From Leucoraja ocellata (taxonomy: Eukaryota): DNA of 64,000 nucleotides. Numbering within the stretch: the stretch's first letter is position 1; every line of letters starts with the position of its first letter. A program made the translations under genes and the position numbers. Positions 2,861 through 61,225 of the stretch are shown here, in pieces. Under the pieces are notes generated by a model that had not been told where the DNA came from, made no database searches, and was given only the letters and a program-made list of their open reading frames with translations. The DNA lies in the NCBI GenBank assembly GCA_036785375.1, contig JAWMAR010000361.1, positions 620,001 to 684,000 on the forward strand. The letters are read 5' to 3'.

Positions 2861-3410
2861 ACATAGAAACATAGAAATTAGGTGCAGGAGTAGGCCATTC
2901 GGCCCTTCGAGCCTGCACCGCCATTCAATATGATCATGGCTGATCATCCAACTCAGTATCCCGTACCTGCCTTCTCTCCATACCCTCTGATCCCCTTAGC
3001 CACAAGGGCCACATCTAACTCCCTCTTAAATATAGCCAATGAACTGGCCTCGACTACCCTCTGTGGCAGAGAGTTCCAGAGATTCACCACTCTCTGTGTG
3101 AAAAAAGTTCTTCTTATCTCAGTTTTAAAGGATTTCCCCCTCATCCTTAAGCTGTGACCTCTTGTCCTGGACTTCCCCAACATCGGGAGCAATCTTCCTG
3201 CATCTAGCCTGTCCAACCCCTTAAGAATTTTGTAAGTTTCTATAAGATCCCCTCTCAATCTCCTAAGTTCTAGAGAGCATAAACCAAGTCTATCCAGTCT
3301 TTCTTCATAAGACAGTCCTGACATCCCAGGAATCAGTCTGGTGAACCTTCTCTGCACTCCCTCTATGGCAATAATGTCCTTCCTCAGATTTGGGGACCAA
3401 AACTGTACGC
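2861..3410 (-). mobile_element. Young CR1-clade LINE 3' fragment (ORF2 C-terminus)
   Basis: ORF 2953-3450 reads CVQFWSP..RRLRGDLIETYKI..FFTQRVVNLWNSLP. (TTTCTATG)n tail. Near-identical to the copies at 9546, 32647 and 46716. Confidence 0.95.
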
Positions 3411-4713
3411 AAGTGGAGATTGATACATTCTTGATTAGTACGGCTGTCAAAGGTTACAGAAAAAAACCTTGGGCTTGTGAGGTAAGACATTCCCTCTGCA
3501 GATGTGTAGGAAGAAACTGCAGATGCTGGTATAAACAGAGGATAGACACAAAAAGCTGGAGTAACTCAGCGGGTCAGACAGCATCCCATTGAGTGACTCC
3601 AGTACATGGTATTTTCACTCTTTATAGTCGAGTCTTGCTGCAGGTTGAATGTTCTGGCCAGTTTGTGACATTGCGACTTTACTGTACAACTGGCACACTA
3701 CATAACTCTTCTGCTCAGTCACAATCACAATACGAATGAATGAAACAAGAACAATGTGCCCATGAGTAAAGGTAGCACTGAACAATTTATTACGTCGAGG
3801 AAAGTTTATGTTGTGGCATTAAAACTGCAGTTTCTCTGCAGATTGTCAAATATCAGTCAATGATCCCAAAATTGGGTTTTCTCTCTCAACAATGTATTCA
3901 CTTCTAAGTCCATTATCCGGATAATTTATTGGACATTTCCTTTGGAGGAATTATGGCCGAGCTATTGTATTATTGCAAGCGTAATGGGGATTGATAAGAA
4001 CTAAACAAACAGTAGCTTGGAAACTCATCTGTGCCTGCGATTGTTCTGGGTGTGGGGCAAACTGCACAAATCACCAGCACTTAAAGCTCCACAGAGTCAA
4101 GAGCTATACAGATCCAGAGCCAAAAAGAGGGCTTTGAGTGAATTAATTCATCCACTGTCCCCAATCAAACATGCTCTAACGCAGCACCAAATCTGTAATG
4201 CAAGGATAAGTTCCTTTAATGGATCATTGTACTCACAAGTTGTCTCACCCAGTTTTTGGCAGCAAACTTTCAGTTTTCAGTTGTTCCAAACAACTTTTTG
4301 ATTGAAGTAGCCTTTCCCTAAAGTAGTTGTTAAACAAGTCATCTTTTACTCTGCATAGTGCATTAACATTTTGCACAGTGAAGTCGGACAGAGGGCTGTT
4401 AGGCAGACTGGCGGTGGGAGGGAGTGCACTGCATCAATGGTGGAGAGGGCCGGTGGAGGCCATGCAGCAGCCTGGGACTCGGTTGGACCAGGCGCTGCTC
4501 CAAGTGGCCAAGCTCGTGGACCGGATCCAGGTTATAGGGGGGGGGGGAGCAGCGGTGGAGGAGCAGAAGAGGACACCACAGCTACGCTTGAACAGGTTGA
4601 CCACACAACGCCTGCCAGGACAACGGGCCTTCATGGTGAGGTCAAGAACCCTGCACTTACAAACTAAGACTTAAAAATAGCGCCAAAAACTGGCGGCTCT
4701 GGATACTATCTTA

Positions 4714-5682: not shown

Positions 5683-6163
5683 GAATCATACAGGACAGAA
5701 ACAAATCCTTCAGCCCAATTTGTCCATGTTGCATAAGCTGCCAGTCTGCGCAAGTCCCATTTGCAGCAATTGATCCATCTCCCTCTTAACCTTTTCTCAT
5801 CATCTACCTGTCCAAGTTACTTTTAAAAGTTGTTACACTCACTGCCTCAACCACTTCACCTGGCAGCTCATTCCATATCTGTATCACCATCTGTGTGAAA
5901 AAAAGTTGCCAGTCAGGTTCCTATTAAATAGTTCCCTTCACATTTATGCCCTCAGTTCTTGATTCCCCTACCTTGTTGAAAAGACTCTGTACACGTACCC
6001 TATCAATGGCCCTCATGATTTTATACACTTCTTTCTATAAAATCATTCCTTGGTCTCCTACACTCCAAGGAATAAAGCCCCAGCCTGCCCAACTTCTCTC
6101 TGTAACTGAGTCCAAGTCCTGTCAATGTCACTGTGAATCCTTTCTGCACTCACTCCAGCAGAA
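5683..6163 (-). mobile_element. Old CR1-clade LINE fragment ending at assembly gap 6164-6438
   Basis: Diverged similarity to the CR1 ORF2 end and 3' UTR seen in other copies in the window. Confidence 0.7.
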
Positions 6164-7380
6164 NNNNNNNNNNNNNNNNNNNNNNNNNNNNNNNNNNNNN
6201 NNNNNNNNNNNNNNNNNNNNNNNNNNNNNNNNNNNNNNNNNNNNNNNNNNNNNNNNNNNNNNNNNNNNNNNNNNNNNNNNNNNNNNNNNNNNNNNNNNNN
6301 NNNNNNNNNNNNNNNNNNNNNNNNNNNNNNNNNNNNNNNNNNNNNNNNNNNNNNNNNNNNNNNNNNNNNNNNNNNNNNNNNNNNNNNNNNNNNNNNNNNN
6401 NNNNNNNNNNNNNNNNNNNNNNNNNNNNNNNNNNNNNNCTCTATGACATTGTTCAATTGTGTTATTTCATTGCAGAGTTTCCTTTTATATGCAAATAAAT
6501 TTGAACTAAAACTTTCTAAAAGCAAAATACTTATTAAAATCAACATGGCTTTGAATATTGTAATCCTGATCACCAATTGTGTTGAAATGAAAACTCCACA
6601 GCAAGTTTACTATCATTAATGGAATCTGAAATGACATTAATTTGAAGAATTTGATGAATCCTTTCAGCCAAGCTTCAAGATGTTTCTTGAAAACAATAAT
6701 AGCTGTCTTTATAAATTATTTTTTTTCAGGATTGTTATATTTGGCTTAAGGTACAGATATGGTTCACTGATTTAACGAACTAACAAAAATCCAGGTTTGA
6801 ATTGTAGATAAATCTAACTATAAAATTCTGTCTGAGTCATTCATTTCCTGTTACACAGATGAAATAGCAAAGTGGATTTCAGAAAGGAGCTTTTGTGACT
6901 TGGGTGTTAGTGGACCAGTGAGTCTACCTATAATCTGGGGAAGGGCTAATGCAGTTTCAGGCTTTTATCTTGTTGCAGTCAGTATCCCAGCTGGACAATA
7001 AAACATTGTTCCAGTTTGTGCCTTTGGATTACTAAATAGATATGGCTTGAATCAGTCAATATTCCACCTACATTGAAATGAAAACCACATGAGGACGCAG
7101 CCAGTACTAATATACATCATGCTTTTTCTTCATGTGTTCTCATTGTTAATGACAAATGTGGATATATGTCTGCCGGTATAATATATAAATATAAGAGTGA
7201 ACCGAGCAATCATTAAAACCAAATGCAACATGGTGTTGTTTGTTAGCGATATCTGTCTATAGTTTCACATAGTTTCTACTAAACCATCCTTTGATCAGCT
7301 GTTAAAAAGCTTGGCTCCAGTTAAATAAAATGGGAAATGCCTGTTTTCACTTTCCAGGAAGGTTCTGAGAAATTCTCTTT

Positions 7381-8440: not shown

Positions 8441-8565
8441 GTACACAACAATGCTGGAGAAACTCAGCGGGTGCAGCAGCATCTATGATGCTGCTGCACC
8501 CGCTGAGTTTCTCCAGCATTTTTGTGTACCTTCGATTTTCCAGCATCTGCAGTTCTTTCTTAAAC
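8441..8565. mobile_element. Fold-back Penelope-like mini-element (young subfamily)
   Basis: About 44-bp inverted arms (8440-8483 and 8487-8530) with a 3-nt loop. TSD ACTTTCC(G/T)CTGGTG at 8427-8440 and 8566-8579. Confidence 0.88.
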
Positions 8566-16982: not shown

Positions 16983-18079
16983 GTTTGCTTCTCATTGAAA
17001 TCTTATCAGGTGGATGCAAGCTTCTGCACTCTGCTGTACATTCCCCTGGACAGGTTTATCAGTCCAGTGTCCTCTTGTAACTTCTCTTTCAAGTCTTTTT
17101 GAGCTGCAATATTTACATTTGCTGTATTGTTGAAAGTATCATTCTTTATTAGTGAAACCACGTAAGGTTTAGAATATGTTCATGAGTTCTCGGAGTAGAA
17201 TTCGGCCATTCGGCCCATCAAGTCTACTCTGCCATTCATTCATGGCTGACGTAGTAATAATGATTGCTAAGGTATGTGTGAGAACTTGCTCTACTGTTTT
17301 TTTATCAAATGCAAACAGTGATTACATTCCAAAATAACTTAATTTGAAGTATGAAACTGTGTGATATCCTTAAAATAATATAGATAGTGATGGATAAATG
17401 TAGAGAGAGGCGAATGGCTGGTTCTGGATCAGATGAGAATGCTTTTACCTCTAAATTAGAACGTTTTGGCTGAAGTACCTCTCCTGAGAGTTGAACACAA
17501 AAACCTCGCCTTTCGTGGGACATGTCCTTGGGATTTTAAATGGGGGTAGTGAATTGCTGAACATGCAAGCTGATAGTGGTGCTGCAGCAAGGCAAATGTT
17601 TAGATCTTTGAGTTTGACTGCACATCTGTCCCTTGCCTGAAGTCACTCTCCCATTAACACATAAATAATGGAGTACACCCTTTGTCTCACTGTTACATTG
17701 AAAGCAGAATCTGGCTTGAATGCTTTCTCCTCTCTAAGTTCTTATGCGAGCGGGCTGGAGCGCGATATTTACTTTTGCTGACTTACAGGTTTTTTGGGTA
17801 GATATGAACAATTACATTGGCAGGAATAACCTTCAGATGTCTCATCTTTCTCTTTCAGCCTGTATTTTAGCCACATCAGTTTAGTTTAGTTTGGTTTAGA
17901 GATACAGCGCGGNNNNNNNNNNNNNNNNNNNNNNNNNNNNNNNNNNNNNNNNNNNNNNNNNNNNNNNNNNNNNNNNNNNNNNNNNNNNNNNNNNNNNNNN
18001 NNNNNNNNNNNNNNNNNNNNNNNNNNNNNNNNNNNNNNNNNNNNNNNNNNNNNNNNNNNNNNNNNNNNNNNNNNNNNNN

Positions 18080-18094
18080 AGTGGGACAGGGGCA
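18080..18094. mobile_element. Right TIR of a third family-A-type MITE emerging from gap 17913-18079
   Basis: AGTGGGACAGGGGCA followed by TTA. Confidence 0.65.
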
Positions 18095-18099
18095 TTAGA

Positions 18100-18645
18100 C
18101 TCATTCCACCTTGGCCTACGCGATCTCCTGGTTGTTAATAGATCTTCCCATTCCCATACTGATCTTTTTGTCTTGGGTCTCCTCCACTGTCAGAGTGAGG
18201 CCACATGCAAGTTGGAGGAACACCACCCCATATTTCACGGGCAGCATTTCTACAACCCAGCAGAATGAATATTGATTTCTCTAATTTCAAGTAAGTCTGA
18301 CATTCCTTCCCCCCCTTCTCCTCCCCCCCCCCCCCCCCCCATCCCACCATCCCCGATCCTAGTCTTCTTCCTACTAGTTCCAGTATTTGGATCCTTTTAT
18401 CCCCATTTGTAAGCACATCTTCCCCAGCAAGAATGGGCCATTATGGACTCCACCCTTTCTGAGGTCATCTGTTGCCGGCAATGATTTGTTCTGGCCTTCT
18501 CTATCTTTCAGTCTGAAGAAGAGTTCCGATCCGTAAAGTCACCTATTCCTTTTCTCCAGAGATACTGCCAGACCCACTGAGTTACTCCAGCTTTTGGTGT
18601 CTATCTTTGGCAAAAACCAGCATCTGCAGTTCTTTCCTGTACATT
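18100..18645 (+). mobile_element. Penelope-like element 3' fragment (degenerate GIY-YIG C-terminus plus terminal repeat)
   Basis: Homologous to 41517-42075 and to the reverse complement of 43235-43700. Degenerate hammerhead at about 18512-18540. Confidence 0.8.
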
Positions 18646-19333
18646 TTGTCTGCTCTAAGTTTAGCTGATTAATGAAGTGAATCTAACGTGATAATTTCTG
18701 CTGCGAACTGTGCTCCTTAACTCGTACGTCATTGAATGTTCATTGAACACGAAGAAATATGTACAACAGAAAATGTACTCAGACAAATGTTACCTTGTAT
18801 TTATAAAGGGAAAGTTTCCAGACTTAAAGCAACTATTCATGAAGGCCAGATTAAAGATTAAAGCCAATACATCAAAACTTTCAAATGTTAGCTCAAGGCA
18901 TTATATCAAAAGACCACATGTTTGAATATCGGTGTCACGTACTTCACATAACCAGCCACCTATTGAAATGGGCAAATAAATATGCTTTTAAGAAAATATA
19001 TGCAAACATTTGATGCACTTAATGTTGAGATTCCCCCATTACATCTCATTCAATTCTGAATGAATGGAGAAAGCTCTTGGAAAATTAAGTCACATTTTGT
19101 ATTTCGGGCTTGTGATATTGCACTCGGAGCCACCACCAGTCTTTCAGGTATGAACTGGCCATCGAGCCTCTGACGTGGTGGGAATGTGGTGTACAGCACT
19201 ATCTGGATGTGTGTCACCTCCCACAATGCTAAAGGCCAGAACAATCGACACCTTGGACTGAAACGGTAGCTGGACATTAATTGGCTTCAATAAAAAATTG
19301 TAAATGGCCCCTAGTGTGTGCAGGGTAGTGTTA

Positions 19334-21592: not shown

Positions 21593-23122
21593 TTCATTTC
21601 TCTCTCCTCTTGACACCCCTTCACTCAGACATTTTTGTGTTTTGCGGTTTCATCAGTGAAACTGTTGGAAAATGTAATCTCATGCTCTCCCTCATACAAC
21701 TAGAAGGAGCATGTCACAGAATGCTTTTTATTCTTCTCATTAATATTTAGTCATGAGTTAGTTCCTCCTCATGGCACTGCCCAGGACAGGAACGTTACCT
21801 GGGGCAAAGTGCTGGACATGATTCTGTGCATCGCCCCTCTGTGGTATAATATATAATAGCAGCAATATATTTAGCATTAGGTGAAAGTACTGACTCCAAA
21901 CCAGAATTAGTCACCACACAAACAATGCACTTTCATGACCATTAACTGCTCTTAAAGTAGTTAATTATTGCATTGTTTGGTTGACTAAAATGTAGCTGAG
22001 AGTTGATTTATTGGAATAACATTTTCATTCAAGTCTCGGGAAGCCAAAGATATAAAGATTTGTCCGATCATCAGTCTAACTGAAGTCAGGCCAGATGTCG
22101 ATTTACTCCGTTGCCAACTTCCTGCTGCAGAGTTATTTTAAAGCAGCAAATGATGGAATAGATGGTAAAAAGGACATTAGGTGTGCTTTGTTGGCACATC
22201 ATTGTTAAAGTCAAGTTAACTGTAGCAAATCCTTCCAGACCTCTCATTAGATTGTTTACATTTTCGAATGACAAGGACGGCTCAGTTCCTAACTTCCTCA
22301 ATGATTAAAGACGGGTTTAAGGCGAGGTGGGAGAATTTAATGGGAATTTGAGGGGTCACTTTTTCACACAGGTGAGTGTATGGAACGAGCAGCTGGAGGT
22401 GGCCATTGAGGCAGGTGGTATCATTTCTTGCCTGTGGTGGGCTCCTGAAAACTTGAGAATGAGAACTTAAGAATGGTAAATGTGGCCTTCGTGTGTTCAC
22501 TTGGTTACGTAGTCAAACAGTGTAGTTTGTGTTGAATTGAATGCACACAGTTCTCAATAAAGAGTTGGCAGAAACTCCATAGGAATTGGCTTTCAGCTCA
22601 AAACTGTCCTCAGCATGCTGTACTGATAACAAGTTGCTGGAAGTCCAGAATGTCCCACGACAGAAAGGGGAGGAGTTGTACAGTTTGATAGCCACATGGA
22701 AGAAGAAAGATCCAAAGTATTTATATTTAATAAATCTACAAGCGCACAACGGGTCCAGTGAAATTCATGTGTACTGTAATAATTCATCTAGATTACTTCG
22801 ACAGGACCTGCCAAATCCCGATCCTCCATCACCAAGGGAGGGGGGGAGGTGGTATAGGCCAGATAGATCATGAGAATCTCCTGCAAGTTTCCCTTCCAAA
22901 CCACACGTCATCCTGACTTGGGCCTATATCGTTATCTCTTCATTGTTGCTGGGTCAGACCCTGGAACTCCCTGACCTATGGCGCAGTGCGAGGGCCTTCA
23001 CCAGAAAGATTGCTGCGATTCGAGAAGGAAGCCCACCACCATCATCTATTGGGGTTGTTCGCATGAAGGGGCTCAACCCAAAATGTCGACAATTCCTTTC
23101 TCTCCACAGATGCTGCTTGACC

Positions 23123-23411
23123 CAGGGCCGGCCTTAAGCCAATTGGACCAATTGCTCCCAATTGGGCCCCGCGCCTAAGGGGGCCCCACGCTAGAGTAAT
23201 CTACTCTCGATGTACTTTTCAGAGGCGATCTATACATTTTGTTTGTTACTTGTAGGCTTACATGTATGCAATTTTATATTAAAATGATGTAGCTTAGATA
23301 GAATATCTATAATAGACTTTATTTATATTTCTATGATTCTACAGACCTGGGAACCTGGAGATCACCAACATTGTTCCCAATTGGGCCCCGTACCTCCTAA
23401 GGCCAGCCCTG
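23123..23411. mobile_element. hAT-type MITE
   Basis: TIR CAGGGCCGGCCTTA / TAAGGCCAGCCCTG. Perfect 8-bp TSD GCTTGACC at 23115-23122 and 23412-23419. Inserted in a PLE tail. Confidence 0.92.
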
Positions 23412-25153: not shown

Positions 25154-25330
25154 TGCAGCAGCATCTATGGAGCGAAGGAAATAGGCAACGTTTCGGCCCG
25201 AAACCCTTCCGGGTTTCGGCCCAAAACGTTGCCTATTTCCTTCAGGGTTTCGGCCCGAAACATTGCCTATTTCCTTCGCTCCATAGATGCTGCTGCACCC
25301 GCTGAGTTTCTCCAGCACTTTTGTCCACCT
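25154..25330. mobile_element. Fold-back Penelope-like mini-element with 2 x 34-bp central duplication
   Basis: Inverted arms; tandem units at 25207-25240 and 25241-25274. Confidence 0.85.
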
Positions 25331-29351: not shown

Positions 29352-31025
29352 TACAACTTACTAAGGGCAATTAACCTACAAATCTGTACATCTTTAGAGT
29401 GTGGGAGTGTGCGCACCCGGAGAAAACCCACGCAGTCACAGGGTGACAGTACAATCTCCGTATAGACAGCATCCGTAGTCAGGATCGAACCCGGGTCTCT
29501 GGTGCTGTAAGGCAGCGATTCTTATATTTTTCTCTCTCCAGTTCTCTCCGTGGTCTGAAGACTGTTAGTGCATTATTGCTGCCCGACATTGTGCCACGAC
29601 ATTGAACGGACTGTTCACGGGCGTGGAAGCTTTCTGCCTCTAATCACTGGAGCTAAACCCTTGTCAGGGTATCAGTCTGCAGAAAGCTTTTGTCTGAAGA
29701 AAGGTCCTAATTCAAAATGTTGTCTGTCCATTTTCCACCACAAATACCGGCAGACCCATCGAGTTCTTCCGGCATTTCATTTAGCTCAAGGTGTCAGAAT
29801 CCCACTGTTCTATAACAATGCAAGCAGTCAGATTAGAGATTCTGAATCGACACAAAAAGCTGGAGTGACTCAGCGGGCCAGGCAGCATCCCTGAAGAGAA
29901 GGAATGGGAGAAGACCGTACAATTATTAATATACTTTTAATTGATGATAGAGAGGCCAAACTAAAGATTGGAAGAAGTACTTTGATTAAAGTAGGAACTG
30001 AAAAGCCAATTTAAAAAAAACTTGAAACAAAATTATATTTAAAAATCTATGGAATCTATGGGATTTAAAAAGAATTATTCTTTGGAAATCAATGTCCACG
30101 TGTTGAAAAATATTTGGACATGCACATGTATAGGGCAGGTTTAGAGGGATATGGGCCAAATGCATACAGGTAGGACTAGTGTAGATGGGGCATGTTGGTC
30201 GTTGTGGGCAAGTTGGCTGAAGGGCCTGTTTCCATGCTGAATGACACTATGACTCTAATTGGAGTTTTTCAGGACCAGAATAGATGTTCAACATGAATCA
30301 TGGCATGAGATTCAGCACATGCAATATTTTAATTCTTATTTTCAGTTAAGGTAGAGGATAAATAGTTGAAGATTCTGAGAGTTTACAGATTTACCATGAG
30401 TTCCCTTCATGCCCACTGCAACTGCTACTCTTAGAGTAGCAAGAATCAGTGACTGCAATGTCATTAACTGTGCATTTGTAAACGCTAGGAATTGCAATCT
30501 GATTTCTCCCATTGTAACAGTGAACGCTGGTGGTCTTAGAGCAAACTTGGACTATTGCTTCAAATCATCGACGTGACTAGTGCTCAGCAACTCCCCAAAG
30601 CACCATTTTTCAAACTGAAAAATGAAAGTAAATATTACAAATCTAACTTAAATAGGAACTAATTAACTTCTAAAAGATGATCAAAGGCCAAGATTCCATC
30701 TTTAACCTCATCAGAAGGCACTTTATAGAATCAGCTCTTGAGTATAATGGATGAAAAGTATCAAAAGGACTGAATTAAAAAAACTAAATTGGACAGTGCC
30801 CATCTGAGAACATGGAATTACATTTCTGTACATCAAGATAGCAAAGCAGCGGCAAGCGTGACATTTTACCAATGGAGACGGGGGTTACTGCCAATTTGTC
30901 TACAGAAAGGGAAGAACATTACTTTTTAATGGCATGCCTTATTGCTTCATTTAAAGAATGCCAGAGGACACTTCAAGGACTATCAAGCACCCAGTTAGAC
31001 AGAGGCTGACATGCAAAGCACTAAC

Positions 31026-34043: not shown

Positions 34044-34168
34044 TTGAAGAAGGGTCTCGACCCAAAACGTCACCCATTCCTTCTCTCCAGAGATGCTGCA
34101 TGTCCCACTTAGTTACTCCAGCCTTTTGTGCTTTTCTTCGGTTTAAACCAGCACCTGCAGTTCCTTCC
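34044..34168 (+). mobile_element. Solo Penelope-like terminal repeat beginning at the hammerhead core
   Basis: Starts TTGAAGAAGGGTCTCGACCCAAAACGTC. TSD CCCACA(A/T)TAAT at 34033-34043 and 34169-34179. Confidence 0.82.
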
Positions 34169-34629
34169 CCCACATTAATCTATATCCACAATTCTATATT
34201 GTTCCTAGACAATAATTTTTTATAAATGCTGTAATTAGCTATCTAACTACTACACATTCAAATCTATTAATAGAACCATAAGACTGTAGGAGCAGAATTA
34301 GGAAATTCGGCCCATTGTGTCTGCTCCACCATTTGATCATCACTGATCTATTTTTCCCTCTCAACCCCATTTTCCTGCCTTCTCTCCGTAAATAAATTTC
34401 TCAGTTTATCCTCAATAGGCTGATCTCAACTGATCGTTATTTTTCTTCTCAAGAAAAGAAAAGCAAAACTTTGACAAGCAACACCAGATTCCTCCGTGAC
34501 CACCAAGCCACAACTGCAGAATAACTATTAGGTGTTGGCATTGGTTACATCCTTGAGCATGCATGTTAAGTTGAAAGAAAACAAATGAATGTATAGGCTC
34601 GATTCTCCTATCTCCAATACATCTGAATA

Positions 34630-35140
34630 AGTCAACGTATTAGCACAACCCGATTATACACAGTGCTATTCGTATCCGGAAACAGCTGAAACTCAGTCTT
34701 AAATTGAGAAACATGTCTCTCCTTCTTCCCATTGCAAATAATCCCTCTTTTAAACCGTCTACTTTAGATGGTGTGTTTGCTCAATGGAAGAATCAGAGAT
34801 TCAACACTGTTGGAGACCTCTATCAGAAGAGGACTCTCTCCTCTTTCCAAGAACTGCAGGAGAATGCCAATGATTTGAATGCCAATAATTTTTTTAGATA
34901 TCTCCAACTTCGAGATTACGTGAAAACATATACACAAGATTGTTCTCTTATGGGTCCTGATATATTAGATGACTGTTTGAATAGACATGCCGATACAAGC
35001 AAGCTGATATCTTACATTTATAATACCCTTCTAAATATTGACACTCCACCTTCTGAGATCTATAGGCGAGCATGGGAGGATGATCTGGGTCAACACATTT
35101 CGAAAGATATATGGGATGAAAGCCTACAATACATACATTG
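34630..35140 (+). mobile_element. L1-clade LINE ORF2 internal fragment (post-RT region)
   Basis: ORF 34704-35180 LLPIANNPSFKPS..GDLY..FFRYLQLRDY..WEDDLG is typical of fish L1 ORF2. Joined at about 35138 to a PLE tail. Confidence 0.8.
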
Positions 35141-36327
35141 CCTATTTTCTTCGCTCCATAGATGCAGCCGCACCCGCTGAGTTTCTCCAGCATGTTTGTC
35201 TATCCTGGTGCGTTAAATGTGCTTTGTGACTTGTGAATTTGCGATTTGACATATTTGCAAGTCCCCAAATATCAATGGTTCAATGGTTCAATAGTGTTTC
35301 TTTTGTCACATGTGCAACTGCACAGTGAGACTATTTTGCATAGTTACACAAGCGGGCATTGCCATATTTTGACATCAATTCCAAAGTCTAAAGTCGTCTG
35401 CTCTGCTGACCGACCCTAGTTTCCACAGATTCACCACCCTCTGACTAAAGACATCTCCTTCTAGGTAAGTACCTGAGGAGGGGCTGGTTTGGGTGGGAAG
35501 GGATTAGTTAACCAGGGAACTGCAGAGGGAATGGTCTCCTCGGAAGGCGGAAAGGGGTGGAGATGGGAAGATGTGACTAGGGGTGGGATCCCGTTCGTGG
35601 TGTAATAAATATCAGAGGATTATGTGCATTATGTGACGGTTGATGGGGTGAAAGGTGGAGCACTAGAGGAACTCTGTCCTTGTTACAACTGGGGGAAGGG
35701 GGAGCAAGAGCGGAGCTGCAGGGTATTGAATAATGGTAGTAATTTCAAATATTGGCCTTGCCACAAAATGACCCCTGTAATTAAAACTTTGTACATGAAT
35801 GGCATTTCATATACACGACCTTGATCTGCTGAGAATTCCCTCTATTATAAGCAGATTATAGTCCAGCAATGGGTGATAATGAGTTACTTACAATTGCAAC
35901 ATAAGATAGAAAATGAATGTTAGAGACTTGGTTATTAGGAATAATTGTTGATGTTTTTGATGCGGAGCCAGGATTGGAGAATGTTTAATTACTGTTTCAC
36001 CCAACATGAAGCCTTAAGTCTATGATCATGAAGCAATACGCTTGGTGGTGATGAGCTTGATAGAATATTTCTGAATACATTTCACTGTGTGCAGCTTTAA
36101 TTTGCACATTTGATCCACTTCCTTTTTCATCTTATACATGCTGATTGGTGAAGCAGCATGATTATTCCATGCAAATATATTTAATGTTAATGTTTGTTCC
36201 TGGTGGGTTTTAATGGATTTGTAGGAAAACAATATTTTTGCAATAGAAGAATCAGAGAATAATTTTTCTACATACTAAGTGTATATATATGACATATGTG
36301 TGTATGTGCATATGTGTTTCATTGTAG

Positions 36328-40809: not shown

Positions 40810-41350
40810 GAGTGGGGGAGCGGGGGAGCGGGGGAGCGGNNNNNNNNNNNNNNNNNNNNNNNNNNNNNNNNNNNNNNNNNNNNNNNNNNNNNNNNNNNNN
40901 NNNNNNNNNNNNNNNNNNNNNNNNNNNNNNNNNNNNNNNNNNNNNNNNNNNNNNNNNNNNNNNNNNNNNNNNNNNNNNNNNNNNNNNNNNNNNNNNNNNN
41001 NNNNNNNNNNGAGCGGGGGGAGAGGGGGAGCGGGGGAGTGGGGGGCGGGGGAGAGGGGGAGAGGGGGAGTGGGGGAGAGGGGGAGAGGGGGAGAGGGGGA
41101 GTGGGGAGAGGGNNNNNNNNNNNNNNNNNNNNNNNNNNNNNNNNNNNNNNNNNNNNNNNNNNNNNNNNNNNNNNNNNNNNNNNNNNNNNNNNNNNNNNNN
41201 NNNNNNNNNNNNNNNNNNNNNNNNNNNNNNNNNNNNNNNNNNNNNNNNNNNNNNNNNNNNNNGAGGGAGAGCGGGGGAGCGGGGGGAGCGGGGGAGAGGG
41301 GGAGAGGGGGAGCGGGGGAGCGGGGGAGAGGGGGAGCGGGGGAGAGGGGT
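40810..41350 (+). repeat. (GGGGGAGC/GGGGGAGA)n G-rich satellite with gaps 40840-41010 and 41113-41261
   Basis: 8-bp G5 units flank both gaps; strong G-quadruplex potential. Confidence 0.9.
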
Positions 41351-41516: not shown

Positions 41517-42075
41517 TGCAATGAGTGTGGACTCCTATATATCAGCGAGGCCAAGCGCAGTGTAGCCAAATGTTTCGCTGAACACCTACGCTCAGTCCGC
41601 CTAGTCCTACGCGATCTCCCAGTTGCCAAACAGTTTAACTCCCCTTCCCATTCCCATATGACCTTTCTGTCCTGGGTCTCCTCCACTGTCAGAGCAAGGC
41701 CACACACAAATTGGAGGAACCGCACCTCATATTTCACTTAGGCAGCTTACAATTCAGCAGAATTAATATTGATTTCTCTAACTTCAAATAACCCCTGCCA
41801 TTCCCCCTCTCCGTCCCTCCCCCACCCTAGTCGCCCTGCCAATTCCACTGATATATCCCTTCGTTATCATCTCTTCCACAGCCAACAATGGACAATAGTG
41901 GGCTCCACCTTTCCTTGGTCATCGGTTCCGGCTCTGATTTGTTCTGAACCTTTTCATACCTTTAGTTTCCATCACCCTGACTCTCAGTCTGAAGAAGGGT
42001 TTCGACTTGAAAACATTACCTATTCCTTCTCTCCAGTGATGCTGCCTGACTCACGGAGTTACTCCAGCATTTTGA
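41517..42075 (+). mobile_element. Penelope-like element 3' fragment (degenerate GIY-YIG)
   Basis: CNECGLLYISEAKR..FAEHLRSV..LPVAKQFNSPSH, then the terminal repeat with a degenerate hammerhead at about 41989. Confidence 0.88.
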
Positions 42076-42498
42076 CAACATGCAATGGCATGTTGGCCTT
42101 CACTGCGAGAGGATTTGACTTTAGGAGCAAGGAGGTCCTACTGCAGTTGTACAGAGCCCTGGTGAGACTGCAACTGGAGTATTGTGTGAGGAATTTGAGG
42201 AAGGACATTATTGCCTTGAGTGTTCTGAAAGGCACCCATAAATAAAATGCATCATTATTATTATTATTATTATTATAATTTCAACAAGATTTATATATAC
42301 CCATTGATCAGTAAAGCTACACACATGAAGCATGGAATGATCAACAATCAGACTAATGTCTGGACCAATTTTCAGCTCAGGATTAATGATTAACAGTGCT
42401 ACTACTTTTGGTTGAGGATCAACCTATTTAAATGTTCACTCACTGAGACTTAGGAGGTGCCTTGTGCCATTAATGTCTATTTATTTTGGACCAGAAAC

Positions 42499-42634: not shown

Positions 42635-43234
42635 CTGAAATATCGACAAATATTGATTCAATATGTAGACTGAACCTCCAAAAAAAGAATGAATGTACTG
42701 TTAGGATTCAGCTAGCAACATTCCATCAGATACAACTCCGACAGTGTACTTCCTCAAATCAAATTGACCAAATAATGAAAATATTATACCATGACATGCT
42801 GAAAACAAATTAAATTTCACATCAAGAATTGTCCAGAACTTGGATCAAAAATAGACATCGCACCCTGTAGTAGTAGTAGACTTTCAAGGTCAAATGAATA
42901 ACTTCCCGAGCCAGATACATTAAAAACATTGTATGAAGGAACTGCAGATGCTGAAGATAGACACAACATGCTGGAGTAACTCAGCGGGACAGGCAGCATC
43001 TCTGGAGAGAAGGAATGGGTGACGTTTCAGGTCGAGACCCGTCTCCAGGCTGTGCTTGGAAAGACAGTTAATATGTGTCAAACTTATATGTCCATAACAT
43101 GTCCATCAATCCAGGTTTATATCTGAGCAGCCTTTTGCTCTTGTTTACTTTTATGTTTAGAGACACAGGCCCTTCGGCCCACCGAGTCTGCCCCGACCAA
43201 TGATCCCCGCACATTAACACTAGTAGGGGCTCCA

Positions 43235-44195
43235 GAAGGTAGATAAAAATGCTGGAGAAATTCAGCGGGTCAGGCAGCATCTATGGAGTGAAGGAAATAG
43301 GCAACGTTTCGGGTAGAGACCCTTCTTCAGGCTGATGTGAGGGCGGGGGGGAGGGGGCGGGAAGAAGAAAGGAAGAGGTTGAGACAGTGGGCTGAGGGAG
43401 AGCTGAGAAGGGGAGGAGAAAGTAGGGACTACCTGAAATTAGAGAAGTCAATGTTCATACCGCTGGGGTGCAAACTGCCCAAGCGGAATATGAGGTGCTG
43501 CTCCTCCAATCTCCAATGGTCCTCACTCTGGCCATGGAGGAGGCCCAGGACAGAAAAGTTGGATTGGGAATGGGAGGGGGAGTTGAAGTGCTGAGCCACC
43601 GGGAGATCAGGTAGGTTAATGCGAACTGAGCGGAGGTGTCGGGCGAAGCGATCGCCAAGCCTGCGCTTGCTCTGACCGATGTAGAGCAGCTGACATCTAG
43701 AGCAGCGGATGCAATAGATGAGGTTGGAGGATGTGCGGGTGAACCTCTGTCGCACCTGGAAAGACACTTGGGTCCTTGAATGGAGTCGAGGGGGGAGGTA
43801 AAGCGACAAGTGTAGCATTTCCTGCGGTTGCAAGGGAAAGTGCCCGGAGAGGGGTTGGTGCGGGTGGGAAGGGATGAATTACGGAGGGAGACGGGGGGGG
43901 GGGGGGGGGGGGGGGGGGGGAGATGTGGCCAGTGGTGGGATCACGTTGCAGGTGGTGAAAATGTCAGAGGATTATTTGTTGTATGCGACGGCTGGTAGGG
44001 TGGAAGGTGGGGAAAAGGGGGATGGGGAGAGAGAGCAGAGTCACGAGGTATAGAAGAGACCCTCATGAGAGCCTCATCTATAGAAGAAGAGGGGAACCCC
44101 CGTTCCCTAAAGAATGAGGACATCTTCGATGCCCTGGTGTGGAACACATCATCCCGGGTGCAGATGTGGCGTATACGGGGAAATTGGAAAATGGA
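43235..44195 (-). mobile_element. Neptune-clade Penelope-like element, 5'-truncated (RT C-terminus, Cys linker, GIY-YIG endonuclease, terminal repeat)
   Basis: QFPRIRHIC..FFRERGFP (RT end), PGTFPCNRRKCYTC linker, and NLIYCIRCSRCQLLYIGQSKR..HL..VAQHF..LEEQHLI..GMN (GIY-YIG). Frameshifted. Confidence 0.93.
43303..43330 (-). ncRNA. Minimal type I hammerhead ribozyme core (best-preserved copy)
   Basis: CUGAAGA-A-GGGU(CUCU)ACCC-GAAA-CGUU in the PLE terminal repeat. Stem III is only the palindromic ACGU and stem I is short. Confidence 0.7.
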
Positions 44196-46043
44196 AGTTA
44201 GTGGTGAAATGGATGAAGTCAGTGAGTTGTGTGTGGGTGCAGGAGGTCGCACCAATGCAGTCGACGATGTAGCAGAGGTAGAGTTCGAGGGATAGGGCCA
44301 CGGTCCGCCTCGAACAAGGATGGTTCGACATACACTTATACCAAGCCAATTAACCTACAAACCTCTTTGGAGTGCGGGAGGAAACCAAAGATCTCGGAGA
44401 AAACCCATGGGGTCACGGGGAGAACGTACAAACTCCGTACAGACAGCACTCGTATTCGGGATCAAACCAAGGTCTCCAGCGCTGTGAGTTCTGCTGTTCA
44501 ACTGGAAGCTTTCCTTTCAGTTCTGCTTTGGTTTTCTGCAGCTTTGCCATCCGTTAGTGATTTGGGTTTCTGATAATAGGTGGGCAAACAGACAAAAAGC
44601 ATCAACGGAGACAGATTTGCTTCATTGTTTTCATTTCCTGTTGAAAAAGAAGAGCATGAACGAAATGTAATTTTTTTGTTGTTGACATTTTTGGCTGAAT
44701 TTAAGGAACTACAATGAATAAAATCTACAGAGGCAGATTGCCGGCTTCCCTGGGAATGCCATCTGGATTATTTAAGAGAAAATGCTCTTTGTCCATGTAT
44801 GTGTTTATGAGTTGTTACTTAACATCTGAATGTTATTCTTAATTTGCCACCAATGAGCTATAATACTTAATGTTAGATCTGTACGTAATCTCAATGCTTG
44901 GGGCAACTGGAGCTCAATAACATTACAAACCTGATACAACAAACAGTTTAAACATTTTATCGATTTCCTGCGGGCATGTAAACGGTTTCGGAGATCTTTG
45001 CATCTCACCACGGCAAGGAAAAAGAATTCTCATTTGTTCTGTGTTCCACTTTATCATCCTCTGATCTTCAAAGTGCACTAATTTGAAGTTCATTCCGCTA
45101 CAAAGGCCGAGAAGGCATCTTTAATGGGATTCTTTGTAGCCTGTGCTAATACTTTAGCTGAAACCACAAGAGGCCTGCGCTGGAAATGATTCTATTATAC
45201 ATTTAGCTTAAGTGACTTTCCACATTCACTTTTGACGTTGCTGCTACTGATCGATTCTACATCATATGGAATTTATACATAAAATATATATCTGTAGTTA
45301 AAAACCATACATGGAATCATTAGGGTTAGGTATGTTATGTTTCTTGAACTGGGGAAAATAAAAAGGAAATACATAAATTTATGGACTATAGCAGAGTATA
45401 ATCTGATATGCCTGCTCATTGCTCCTTACTTCATCTGAATTCAGTTTGACAATTACATTATTTCACAGCAACCAGTGGGTAATAAATTACACTTTAATAT
45501 GTGCCTATCATTTCCATCTTGCAGAAATATTATTGAGTATTAATATTTTCCACTATGCTGCATGCAGATCTAAGTTGAGTTTACCATTCCCAAATAAAAC
45601 AACAAGCAGAGTGAATAAAACTTGAATATATCCTTTCATGGCTTCAAGGGAAACACTTTAAATCCAGTGCTAGATTTTAAAAATATAATTATTATTGGAA
45701 CATAGGAAGTTCCACAAGCGGCCTGTATCCATCAAAGGGGCTTGTCATAATGGCCAACTAATGTTCTCAGCACCATTAGCCAAAGGATAACATATTGACC
45801 TCGACAGAACTAATAATTTGCCTGTGTTGTGTAAAGTGTGCAATTTTGGCATGCTCCTATCTCAGCCAAATGTTTTCTCCAGAGATGTTGCCTGACCCGT
45901 TGAGTTACTCCAACAACTTGTGTCCATCACCCAAACCTGTTCTTTTCACAAAGTGGCACTCCATCTGATCTGCAGGGAATTATTCTTTTAGTGATTGGGT
46001 TCACATCTCTAGATGGGGTGTTTAATCCATATTACTTTAAATT

Positions 46044-53670: not shown

Positions 53671-53717
53671 AAACCGCTTCTGATTAATTTAGCTGTTTGT
53701 AGGCCAACAGTAGGCCA

Positions 53718-54318
53718 GCTGGGATGTAATGTTAAAATTGTACAAGGCATTGGTGAGACCAATTCTGGAGTATGGTGTACAATTTTGGTCGCCCAATTAT
53801 AGGAAGGATGTCAACAAAATAGAGAGAGTACAGAGGAGATTTACTAGAATGTTGCCTGGGTTTCAACAACTAAGTTACAGAGATAGGTTGAATAAGTTAG
53901 GTCTTTATTCTCTGGAGCGCAGAAGGTTAAGGGGGGACCTGATAGAGGTCTTTAAAATGATGAGAGGGATAGACAGAGTTGATGTGAACAAGCTTTTCCC
54001 TTTGAGAATAGGGAAGATTCAAACAAGAGGACATGACTTCAGAATTAAGGGACAGAGGTTTAGGGGTAATATGAGGGGGAACTTCTTTACTCAGAGAGTG
54101 GTGGCGGTGTGGAATGAGCTTCCAGTGGAAGTGGTGGAGGCGGGTTCATTGGTATCATTTAAAAATAAATTGGATAGGCATATGGATGAGAAGGGAATGG
54201 AGGGTTATGGTATGAGTGCAGGCAGGTGGTACTAAGGGGGAAAAAAATTTGTTCGGCACGGACTTGTAGGGCCGAGATGGCCTGTTTCCGTGCTGTAATT
54301 GTTATATGGTTATATGGT
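53718..54318 (+). mobile_element. HER1-like CR1 LINE 3' fragment (subfamily 2), open ORF2 end
   Basis: ORF 53729-54235 reads LYKALVRPILEYGVQFWSP..RRLRGDLIEVFK..FFTQRVV. The 3' tail resembles the HE1-like SINE tail. Confidence 0.95.
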
Positions 54319-55218: not shown

Positions 55219-55484
55219 GTGCACAAAAAAGCTGGAGAAACTCAGCGGGTGCAGCAGCATCCATGGAGCGAAGGAAATAGGCAACGTTTCGGGCCAAAAC
55301 CCTTTGGGTTTCGGCCCGAAACGTTGCCTATTTCCTTTGGGTTTCGGCCCGAAACGTTGCCTATTTCCTTTGGGTTTCGGCCCGAAACGTTGCCTATTTC
55401 CTTCGCTCCATAGATGCTGCCGCACCCGCTCAGTTTCTCCAGCATTTTTGTGTGCCTTCAATTTTCCAGCATCTGCAGTTCCTT
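55219..55484. mobile_element. Fold-back Penelope-like mini-element with 3 x 33-bp perfect central array
   Basis: Units at 55303-55335, 55336-55368 and 55369-55401. 16-bp TSD CTTAAAACAAGCCCTG at 55203-55218 and 55485-55500. Confidence 0.92.
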
Positions 55485-56845
55485 CTTAAAACAAGCCCTG
55501 ATTTGTTGCAGAAATCTGTTTTCCAACTCTGGTCTGTGTATCCGGGATAGTATTATGAAATATTCACATTAAGAATATAAAGATCTATGTTATATTCCCT
55601 ATTTCACTTGACTATCAAAAATGGAACAGATATCCTAATTTTGCAGCCAATCCTCAAACCATAACCAAAATAAAGGAATGGCAGAAAATGTACACATTAC
55701 ATAGAAATTTCGAAACACTGAGTAGATTATTAATAAAGTCATAACACATTAGAACTTGACATTAAACTCATGTAAAACAAATAAGAGAGAACAATTTGGC
55801 TGCAGGCCATCCTAATTCTTGAATTCCTTTGACAGTTGACGTCCTTATTTCAACATTTCCCAACTCCATTTGTTGATTTTTCCCTTTGTCATTCTAATTT
55901 CCTGTGCTGTCTCTGATCTTCAAAAGCAAATTGATGGTGTTTTCCACTTTTACCCATCCCTCAACCTTCATGTGATCTATATTTAATTCTCTGCTTTTCT
56001 TCCCAGTTTTTCTCTGCTTCTTCTGACCGGTGGCAATGGATTTCCATGGGAATTTCCACACATCCATGTAGTCTCCTGGGTAGATAATACCCAGCATCTG
56101 CAGTAACTTCCTACACACGAGTCTCCTGGGTACTTTCACCCATGGTATTAATATCGTTCCTTTTTACATGCTTATAGATCTGCTGTATAATTCTAATACC
56201 TTCACAGCTGCATTGTGGCGAGATATAGCTGAAAACATGGTACTGCGCCACAGAAGAAAATTGCAGCGATTTAATTATTAGAAGAAAGCCCTCAGTTTTA
56301 AAGGGAAATACCAGTTTCTCAAACTATGTGATGTTGTCATTAAATATTTTTGAGATTTATTCCTTTTGTGCGCTCGGGTTTAATAGACTTCACCATTCTG
56401 TTGGAATTCTGTGTTGATGGAAGTTGGATTTATGAGCTAAGTCCGTTTGCTTGGTACCTCAATGTATTATTCATTGATATTTTGAAATGTGAATAATTTA
56501 TATTGCTGCCGACACCTACCTCTAGGTGATCATTTTGGAAACCCAATCATTAGTTACTTTGTAACTCACACCTGGTCTCCTGTAGCCACCTATGAATAAT
56601 ACATAGATAAATACACTTAAATACAGCTGCTGCTTTGTAATATGCCACACATTAGCATTTCATAGTGAGACGGAATTGGTGAAAAAAAGCACATTTGACA
56701 CAAATGGCTTACAGCTGATAGATTTAAGTCCTCGGCTAGTGTTTGGCAGAGTATGTTTCAACTGACAAGCTTTCTCTATTGTGTTGTGAGGTCACACAAT
56801 TATCCATTATATGAATCTACTTGGAAAAGCTTCTAGAAAGAGTTG

Positions 56846-59143: not shown

Positions 59144-59155
59144 CTGGGCAGTGTT

Positions 59156-59669
59156 TAAGAAGGAACTGCAGATGCTGGAAAATCGAAGGTACACAAAAAA
59201 GCTGGAGAAACTCAGCTGGGTGCAGCAGCATCTATGGAGCGAAGGAAATAGGCAACGTTTTGGGCCGAAACCCTTCTTCAGACTGATCGGGGGGGTGGGG
59301 GGGGGGGGGGGGGGGGGGCGGGGACAAGAAAGGAAAAAGGAGGAGGAGCCCGAAGGCTGGGGATGGGAGGAGACAGCAGGGGGACTGAGGAAGGGGAGGA
59401 GACAGCAAGGACTAACAAAATTGGGAGAATTCGATGTTCATGCCCCCAGGATGCAGACTCCCCAAGCGGAATATGAGGTGCTGTTCCTCCAATTTCCGGT
59501 GTTGCTTGCTGTGGCCATGGAGGAGACCCAGGACAGAGAGGTCGGAGGCAGAGTGGCAGGGGGAGTTGAAGTGCTGAGCCACCGGGAGGTCAGCTTGGTT
59601 ATAGCGGACCAGGCGGAGGTGTTTGGCGAAACGATCGCCCAACCTCCGCTTGGTCTCACCGATATAGAT
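59156..59669 (-). mobile_element. Young Penelope-like element, 5'-truncated (GIY-YIG C-half plus terminal repeat)
   Basis: YIGETKRRLGDRFAKHL..VAQHFN..LEEQHLIFRLG..GMN. 12-bp TSD CTGGGCAGTGTT at 59144-59155 and 59670-59681. Hammerhead core at 59254-59281 with G12 changed to A. Confidence 0.93.
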
Positions 59670-60065
59670 CTGGGCAGTGTTGGACTGCGATGATGGACTG
59701 GGCTGGGAAAAGGAATAGGTGACGTTCTGGTTGGAACCGTTCTTCATTCAGAAAGATAGAGAAGGCTCTACCTTACTTCTCTACCTTTCAGTCTGAAGAA
59801 TAGTCCCAACCCCAAACATCATCCATTTCTTTATCTCCGGAGATGCTGCCTGACCCGCTGAGTTACTCCAGCACTTTGTGTCTATCTTAAGTTTCCAACT
59901 TGTTCAGTTGTACAATGTGGAAGCAAGGATATATATTGTCCTGATAGTAGTATATAAAATTAAGAGAAAAATAGATAAGCTGGCCAGTCGGAACCTTTGT
60001 CCCACGGTGGAAATGTCAGAGCTCAGAGGTCGTACAGTAGCTTTAACAAGAGAGGGGTAAAGTTT

Positions 60066-60750
60066 AATTGTAATTGTAATTGTAATTGTAATTGTAATTG
60101 TAATTGTAAATCTTTATTGTCATTTCCTGAGTATTCGCATACCCAGAGGAAACAAAAAAACGTTGCTCAACCAGTGTCCATTCAGTTTGCATTAAAAAAT
60201 AAATAGGAATTAAAATTAAAAAATACATGTCATGAACAAATTTAACACTCTACTAAACATTCAACAGCCGTTCCGACCGGCAGCGGCACAACAGTGGCTC
60301 TGCTGCAGTGTGGGGGTTTGTGCGCGATACTTGGCAGGGGGCAAAGTCCATTTAACAGTGTTATAGCCTGTGGGAAGAAGCTGAGGAGCATCCTGCTGGT
60401 TTTGCAGCTAATGCTCCTGTACCTCTTCCCAGATGGGAGGATGGAGAAAATGTCATGCGATGGGTGGTAAGGGTCTTTGATGATGGAGATGGCTCTGTTG
60501 ATACATCTCTTCTTGTATATGTCCAGCAGGAAGGGGAGTGGAGCACCAATAATCCTGCTTGCGGTCTTCACTATCCTGTCCAGTTGGTGCCGTTCGTACG
60601 CCTTGCAGCTCCCGAACCAGGAAGTGATGCCGTATGTCAGTGTGCTCTCGACAGTCCCCCTATAAAAAGTCCGTAGGTGTGTGGTGGGGAGGCCTGCTTT
60701 ACGTAGTCTTCGGAGAGGGTGAAGTCGCTGCTGGGCTCTCTTGACCAGAG
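60066..60750 (-). mobile_element. Young Rex1/Babar-type LINE 3' fragment with (ATTACA)n tail, nested in CR1
   Basis: Open frame KRAQQRLHPLRRLRKAGL..FYRGTVESTLTYGITSWFG..LPSGKRYRS..SFFPQAITLLN. Confidence 0.9.
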
Positions 60751-61225
60751 CTTAAAGGGAATTTGTAGTGTAAGTTGTTTCCAAACAGAGGGCAGTGGGT
60801 GCCTGAAATGTTCTGCCTGGACCAGTGGTGGAGGAAGTCACTCTTGTGGGTTTTTAGAGGCTTTTAGATCAGCACGTGAATATTCAGGGAATAGTGGGAT
60901 ATGGATCATATGAGGCAGAGGAAAGGAGATTCCTTTAGCTTGGAATTGTATTCGGCACAGACCTTGTGGGTTAAAGGAGCTGTTCTTCAACTATGTTCTA
61001 AGCATGTAAATCAGACCAGAATGTCCTAATGTTTTATTACGCTGTCATTTACCCAAAATCATTATGTGGATCACCTTCCCTTTTTCATGTTTGCTCCTTT
61101 ACTTTGACAGAATCTTAAAACTCAAGTATGATAGCAGATAACAGCTGCTACTGGATTGTCTCTGAGCTTTTATCTATTCCTTCTGCCACTGAACAGTTTT
61201 CAGTGAAACGTATTTCAATAAAATG

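Follow-up and report, generated by a model that had tools for sequence, protein, structure and literature searches.

The 64-kb stretch of skate DNA analysed here (hereafter the window, 64,000 nt in full) carries a minimal type I hammerhead ribozyme motif in the pseudo-LTR (pLTR) of a Neptune-type Penelope-like element (PLE), as a preliminary description of this DNA had claimed; the identification is supported by the fit to the published consensus, by the four out of four endonuclease-bearing copies that possess the motif and by the PLE-type insertions in which it resides. The motif is almost certainly a true homologue of the PLE hammerheads, because every published consensus element occurs in order and at the place where PLEs carry them. 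We lean towards the view that a master version cleaves measurably, and the best explanation, which we regard as probable, is a minimal hammerhead of a Neptune-type PLE pLTR that is slow and conditional in active master elements. The motif stands at the weak end of the known PLE hammerhead architecture and may barely cut.

On the minus strand, positions 43330-43303 read CUGAAGA-A-GGGU-CUCU-ACCC-GAAA-CGUU, which is a complete type I minimal hammerhead core. The core had been reported at this place, about 100 nt past the stop codon of a GIY-YIG endonuclease (43431-43429), and both the sequence and the distance (98 nt) agree. The motif and the surrounding pLTR consist of the following parts:

43331..43428 (-): pyrimidine-rich (85%) 3'UTR, or upstream pLTR part, the last two bases of which are the 5' strand of helix I
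43323..43330 (-): hammerhead C3-A9 (CUGAAGA) plus an extra A before G10.1, fitting the published CUGANGAH
43311..43322 (-): helix II of 4 bp, capped by a loop of 4 nt and closed by G10.1-C11.1 (sequence, descriptor and folding)
43303..43310 (-): G12-A15.1, palindromic CG (minimal helix III), U16.1 and U17 (sequence and descriptor)
between 43303 and 43302 (-): predicted scissile bond, placed by the hammerhead numbering in the available part of PMC4209133
43301..43302 (-): 3' strand of helix I, 2 bp (descriptor, pairing test and folding)
43290..43294 (-): CCUUC tract complementary to the core GAAGG, a predicted competing helix (folding)
43235..43289 (-): downstream pLTR with the AGAUGCUG box (43282-43275) and a hairpin (43266-43251)

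The focal copy ends at +96, without the optional tail found in other copies, and the CAG-Y motif closing its upstream pLTR part (43331..43428) may be read as an initiator or as a splice acceptor. The optional tail, as present in copy 59281(-), contains a stretch complementary to the 8-nt box at 43282-43275(-), and in each of the three subfamily consensuses this box closes a long predicted hairpin, a candidate structure for the binding of the reverse transcriptase (RT) or for initiation.

The metazoan PLE consensus is CUGANGAH-G..C-GAAAN-palindrome-NUH (Cervera and De la Peña, 2014; PMC4209133, available in part). The focal copy has CUGANGA with one extra base (H) before G10.1, a helix II closed by G10.1-C11.1 as the PLE minimal type I consensus requires, and the GAAA, palindromic 15.2-16.2 and NUH elements, which are present as A-C-G-U followed by U or C. 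According to the available part of the same paper, minimal hammerheads are found in Xena, Poseidon and Neptune PLEs of fishes, the extra base between 9 and 10.1 is a conserved feature of PLE hammerheads, many of the listed motifs end in UU with GUU triplets present, and helix I has a consensus of 3 bp and is 2 bp long in six of the 56 listed motifs, all with G-C pairs. The extra A after A9 and the GUU triplets, whose novelty had been implied in the preliminary description, are thus already published, and so is the 2-bp helix I. None of the 56 motifs in that table comes from a cartilaginous fish, and no published description of the hammerhead of this skate Neptune-type family was found in a search that covered articles and part of one retrozyme preprint; the family may already be catalogued.

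The closest row in the available part of PMC4209133 is the Neptune of Acropora digitifera, which shares the CUGANGA with an extra base, the GAAA-CG-UC, the site in a Neptune pLTR and a 4-bp helix II starting with GGG and capped by a tetraloop, whereas its helix I has 3 bp against 2 bp in the skate family. Penelope of Drosophila virilis, as described there, shares the 2-bp helix I, the extra base before helix II and an upstream tract ending in AG, but both pairs of its helix I are G-C, its helix II extends to 6 bp and its helix III is longer as well. It is a member of the Penelope/Poseidon clade, which lacks the zinc-finger linker, and it possesses a proven intron, the one in the skate family being putative.

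The focal element is a 5'-truncated, frameshifted Neptune-type PLE that begins at about 44333, and three coding remnants precede its pLTR:

43944..44333 (-): 3' end of the PLE RT (YxDD-type motif, thumb), 5'-truncated and frameshifted (tblastn with ray PLE proteins)
43806..43832 (-): CX4CxxC zinc-finger linker of the Neptune/Nematis/Naiad type, in a frame different from that of the endonuclease (translation)
43429..43764 (-): C-terminal GIY-YIG endonuclease with CCHH residues and the stop codon 43431-43429

Ray PLE proteins P0004 and P0005 match 44286-44191 and 44192-43767 by tblastn, while a Pfam search with the RT fragment, of which only the broken 3' part is present, gave no match. The endonuclease matches Pfam GIY-YIG at E=0.0011 and 19.7 bits, under the cut-off of 22.6, and 3699 representatives match it at E<=0.001. 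Eleven homologues were found, with named skate and ray proteins on top (Leucoraja 75%, Rhinoraja 70%, Hypanus and Mobula; 55-75% identity for the named ones), in keeping with a batoid host. The EN+ PLE architecture, an RT followed by a C-terminal GIY-YIG domain with CCHH residues, is hence present with the RT as a broken fragment, the CCHH residues having been read by eye against Fig. S2 of PMC8557442 (available in part). This source defines the linker motif as CX2-5CxxC and names the linker together with a C-terminal endonuclease as the defining traits of Neptune or Nematis. Naiad is excluded because the endonuclease is C-terminal, and the linker-to-GIY spacing, compared by eye, resembles the Neptune/Naiad rows of Fig. 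S2 and not the Nematis rows. On linker, domain order and spacing by eye, the sequence points to the Neptune clade. The upstream flank of the focal element has many blastn matches, and the element appears to be inserted within another abundant repeat (about 44334-44480 and 43150-43225), which we take to be SINE-like.

A scan allowing up to six mismatches over 23 scored positions detected 17 near-complete cores in the window against 0.15 expected by chance, as estimated from 20 first-order Markov simulations. At least 12 copies had been announced; all 12 other cores listed at that time were recovered within 1-2 nt of the listed end, along with four further ones (5505-, 21597-, 23060+ and 43048-). 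An HMM built from the 17 cores finds 44 terminal-repeat segments, which we grouped by hand into 30 loci. In all four copies with an endonuclease the motif lies in the PLE terminal repeat, separated from the endonuclease by a 3'UTR of 98-218 nt (98 in the focal copy; 130, 197 and 218 in the others). These three and a representative short copy are:

59150..59670 (-): second copy with endonuclease and pLTR, young subfamily, with tail, a perfect 12-bp target site duplication (TSD) and a mutated G12
41517..42079 (+): third copy with endonuclease and pLTR, older subfamily, 197-nt 3'UTR
18119..18648 (+): fourth copy with endonuclease and pLTR, older subfamily, 218-nt 3'UTR, with tail
34044..34174 (+): solo pLTR copy, typical of the short ones, that begins with the first bases of the core and has a tail and an 11-bp TSD

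Assembly gaps lie at about 6160-6440, 17910-18080 and 40840-41260 (763 N in total); two of them are directly upstream of the long copies 18513 and 41989, whose 5' parts they may conceal. The repeat also has divergent relatives, at 23053-23123(+) and 29692-29776(+), and the cleavage-site context of the copy at 23060 differs.

The full hammerhead descriptor is passed by one of the 17 copies, the focal one, with a null mean of 0.0 per simulated window. A relaxed descriptor is also passed by one unrelated, chance-like match at 22613(-) (null mean 0.05), the loose pattern CUGANGA..GAAA has nine matches in the window, seven of them at unrelated places, and a pattern scan of bacterial and archaeal genomes gave no match to the motif. 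The hammerhead-model scan and covariation test proposed in the preliminary description came out negative for the window copies. None of the 25 matches at E<=5 in the Rfam scan of the whole window is to a hammerhead family. Covariation did not exceed that of shuffled alignments (81.4% paired versus 81.3% when shuffled; the score was reached by 188 of 500 shuffles), with low power in 17 decayed copies; in helix II, 82% of the cells are paired over the 17 copies. Some Rfam matches to miRNA and plastid hairpins, at 8457, 25179 and 55275, were discarded as inverted pLTR junctions. The accidental presence of CUGANGA and GAAA in an ordinary repeat would be in keeping with the negative Rfam and covariation results and with the unrelated loose matches, but the empty strict-descriptor null and the occurrence of all published consensus elements in order, at the usual PLE position, make such a chance resemblance scarcely credible.

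The copies other than the focal one have decayed mostly at CpGs, where many changes had been noticed earlier: of the aligned segments, 12 of 26 retain the C11.1-G12 CpG and 14 of 27 the C15.2-G16.2 CpG. An apparent excess of G12 loss (9/17) was rejected, because this site decays like the neighbouring CpG and because in copy 41989 the supposed change results from misalignment around a 1-nt insertion. We placed 31 of 35 aligned segments by eye in three groups, keeping the focal copy apart and excluding 23056, 29690 and 36680. Non-CpG divergence from the group consensus is 3.7% for the GUU type versus 7.7% and 11.0% for the GUC types, and it is this lower divergence that makes the GUU type the younger, in agreement with the proposal that GUC goes with older and GUU with younger copies. 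The simple old/young split holds in terms of divergence, but the focal copy mixes an older stem II with a younger GUU/GCC cleavage region, and therefore more than two subfamilies exist. The two stem II variants, both said to keep the pairing, do so through a wobble; the change is one-sided (U-A to U·G), accompanied by loop changes, and thus does not represent covariation.

Over the three subfamily consensuses, none of 15 constrained positions changed versus five of 14 tolerant ones (Fisher p=0.017, post hoc), the five being two loop bases, two wobble-preserving changes and H17 from C to U. Compared with all other positions (17/74 changed) the same contrast has p=0.065, and compared with the downstream flank p=0.11; an apparent difference at C3 between the consensuses stems from copies truncated at C3. 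The unchanged constrained positions give a hint of selection on master elements. Among the copies themselves, conservation of the core does not exceed that of the flank (8/177 versus 47/800 changed, p=0.59), as neutral decay of dead copies predicts.

The insertions show the hallmarks of PLEs, namely 5' truncation, inverted pLTR pairs, an optional tail of 30-40 bp and TSDs. Their 3' ends are bimodal relative to C3, at about +92-97 and +123-133, as expected because the tail that makes up the difference is optional. At several loci the arms form a head-to-head inversion in which one of the two has the tail. TSDs of 11-18 bp occur at 7 of 29 insertions, with a score that 0.8% of random flank pairs attain, and some solo copies (34044, 47441) have their own. 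No endonuclease is attached at 26 of the 30 loci, and four reach into the ORF.

The 5'-most boundary falls at the start of the motif (-10 to +14) at 16 of 30 loci, and at the predicted cleavage site at one of 30. Under a constant-hazard model a 25-nt interval as full as this has P=0.024, and at that fixed place it arose in 0 of 20000 runs, with boundaries curated by hand and an interval picked post hoc; some old copies may only seem to end at the motif start, with their upstream part unrecognised. The stop near C3 could correspond to the transcript start, to a Penelope-like splice acceptor, or to stalling at the competing hairpin. The TCAGT at this place is initiator-like. Since most copies run across the scissile bond and continue for another 70-100 nt, we infer that their templates were uncleaved or re-ligated. 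That no more than one of 30 loci begins at the cleavage site is in line with the Poseidon of Anolis (PAc), in which RNA that has not been processed serves as the main template and cleavage depends on protein (Frangieh et al., 2024; PMC11167929). PAc shares with the skate family a pLTR hammerhead, insertion from uncleaved RNA and an optional tail between two reverse-transcription start sites, whereas it belongs to another PLE clade and its ORF begins with helix II; in the skate family the beginning of the ORF lies outside the window.

More complex insertions are also present, among them the following:

55220..55490 (.): single, TSD-flanked composite insertion with an inverted arm, two 33-bp repeats of the hammerhead 3' half, and a sense arm with tail

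An inversion at helix II precedes such 33-bp direct repeats (+9 to +40) in the young subfamily, at 25211-25329(+), 54529-54409(-) and 55306-55454(+), and the junctions at complementary AAGG/CCTT tracts suggest template switching there. The segment 61222-61413 is a palindrome centred on loop II with a 12-bp TSD containing one mismatch, as expected from fold-back self-priming at helix II.

These short insertions raise the question of a separate non-autonomous element of about 100-135 bp, similar to a retrozyme or SINE, that amplifies itself via the PLE machinery. The excess of loci without an endonuclease, the TSDs of the solo copies 34044 and 47441 and the three loci with an inversion and 33-bp repeat junction speak for it, as does the tracing of animal retrozymes to PLE pLTRs (bioRxiv 10.64898/2026.07.22.740005, available in part). 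The available part of this preprint describes non-LTR retrozymes, reported in one chondrichthyan genome, that share a type I hammerhead in a PLE-related non-coding unit, but these are by definition tandemly repeated, at least two of the units having a complete hammerhead, while the skate copies are solo, inverted, or repeat only the 3' half. No tandem array of at least two complete hammerhead units exists in the 64-kb window, the 5' boundaries are spread over several positions instead of being fixed, and the subfamily types of the short copies are also found joined to an endonuclease, so that we consider a separate element quite improbable.

The caveat that helix I appears to be only about 2 bp long is borne out, with a predicted probability of at most 0.003 in six of seven folded copies. 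The pair next to the core is U-A in the older groups, U·G in the young one and C-G in the focal copy, the second pair being G-C throughout; the pairs of the main subfamilies are weaker than the published 2-bp cases, the focal copy being the exception. A predicted long helix I in the divergent copy 23060 was not counted: the flank upstream of this copy may be an inverted arm, and complementarity would then arise trivially. The hammerhead-compatible fold lies above the best fold by 2.2 kcal/mol (focal copy, 80 nt) to more than 15 kcal/mol, in energies that count neither tertiary contacts nor proteins. In the predicted competing fold the downstream CCUUC tract sequesters the core, with G8 paired to the downstream pyrimidine tract at P>=0.78 in seven of nine copies. 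The double-hammerhead dimer reaches -0.9 to -9.5 versus -14.9 to -30.8 kcal/mol for the best dimer fold in four of four copies. When the focal RNA is ended at +33, its best predicted fold is hammerhead-like.

The motif could accordingly be a vestigial ribozyme, that is, a PLE homologue effectively dead here, with an eroded helix I, and kept as a promoter or leader, as splice-acceptor context or as a reverse-transcription signal. The U-A or U·G pair in a 2-bp helix I, the move of the young subfamily to the weaker U·G, the competing fold and the uncleaved templates all agree with this, and Naiad PLEs proliferate without canonical hammerheads (PMC8557442, available part). On the other hand, constrained positions are unchanged over the three consensuses while others changed, which is suggestive only (p=0.065), the focal fold becomes hammerhead-like once the RNA ends at +33, and minimal-architecture PLE hammerheads tested elsewhere cleave weakly as dimers or with protein (PMC11167929; PMC4209133, available part). 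We therefore regard a vestigial ribozyme as rather unlikely, though as the alternative that deserves most attention.

The reading that we prefer is a slow, conditional ribozyme in active master elements. The free monomer is predicted to be off, with no helix III, a 2-bp helix I and a core paired to the downstream CCUUC tract. Cleavage after GUC or GUU would take place only when two copies pair via the ACGU palindrome and/or when the element's protein remodels the RNA, as in the anole Poseidon. Its likely role would be the occasional processing of tandem transcripts; reverse transcription would proceed mostly on uncleaved RNA, starting downstream at about +95, or at +130 with the tail, and the genomic copies in the window would be neutrally decaying fossils.

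A more elaborate version, which we put forward as speculative and improbable, is a protein-switched ribozyme. Transcription starting at TCAGT, 3 nt before the core, would cap helix I at 2-3 bp, and the conserved CCUUC tract would keep the core off until the element's own protein refolds the RNA. Reverse transcription from the 5' pLTR tail would then run to the RNA 5' end and stall or switch template at the hairpin, giving rise to the mass of 100-135 bp insertions that are solo, inverted or 33-bp tandem. If this were true, the genomic copies would constitute a fossil record of a protein-switched ribozyme and its folding.

The region upstream of the core may also be an intron. A splice-donor-like motif lies at the endonuclease stop codon (43438-43429(-)), with a perfect GTAAGT in the 18513 copy, and a tract of 70-85% pyrimidine is followed by AG right before the core (43337-43331(-)); by analogy, a pLTR intron as in Penelope is possible. 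The 3' end of the Penelope intron maps to the 5' end of helix I (PMC4209133, available part; splicing also in PMC2377424). No spliced copies joining the donor-like to the acceptor-like motif were seen by eye in the upstream flanks of the window copies, and 18513 was ruled out as one, its full 218-nt 3'UTR being retained. A peptide search with the translated pLTR gave seven matches, one of them named, with nothing decisive on splicing. The named match is a Rhinoraja gene model (P0017, a CHD1L isoform) whose last exon includes the repeat. This model and P0005 (Hypanus) include the repeat or leave the element frame at the stop codon, and as predicted models they give a hint of exonisation.

The motif itself is not new biology. 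What the window adds is an extension of PLE hammerheads to a very abundant family of cartilaginous fish, missing from the published table and present here at about 30 loci within 64 kb. The wider question is whether PLE hammerheads have any importance for transposition, for which a family offering several subfamilies, sharp breakpoint clusters and thousands of copies that can be dated would make a good test bed. Further open frames in the window, at 2956-3453(-), 53714-54232(+), 60245-60751(-) and 34644-35177(+), are presumably the ends of other LINE-type elements. Among the three searched against Pfam (53714-54232, 60245-60751 and 34644-35177), only 60245-60751 has a match (ALKBH8_N, E=2e-10).
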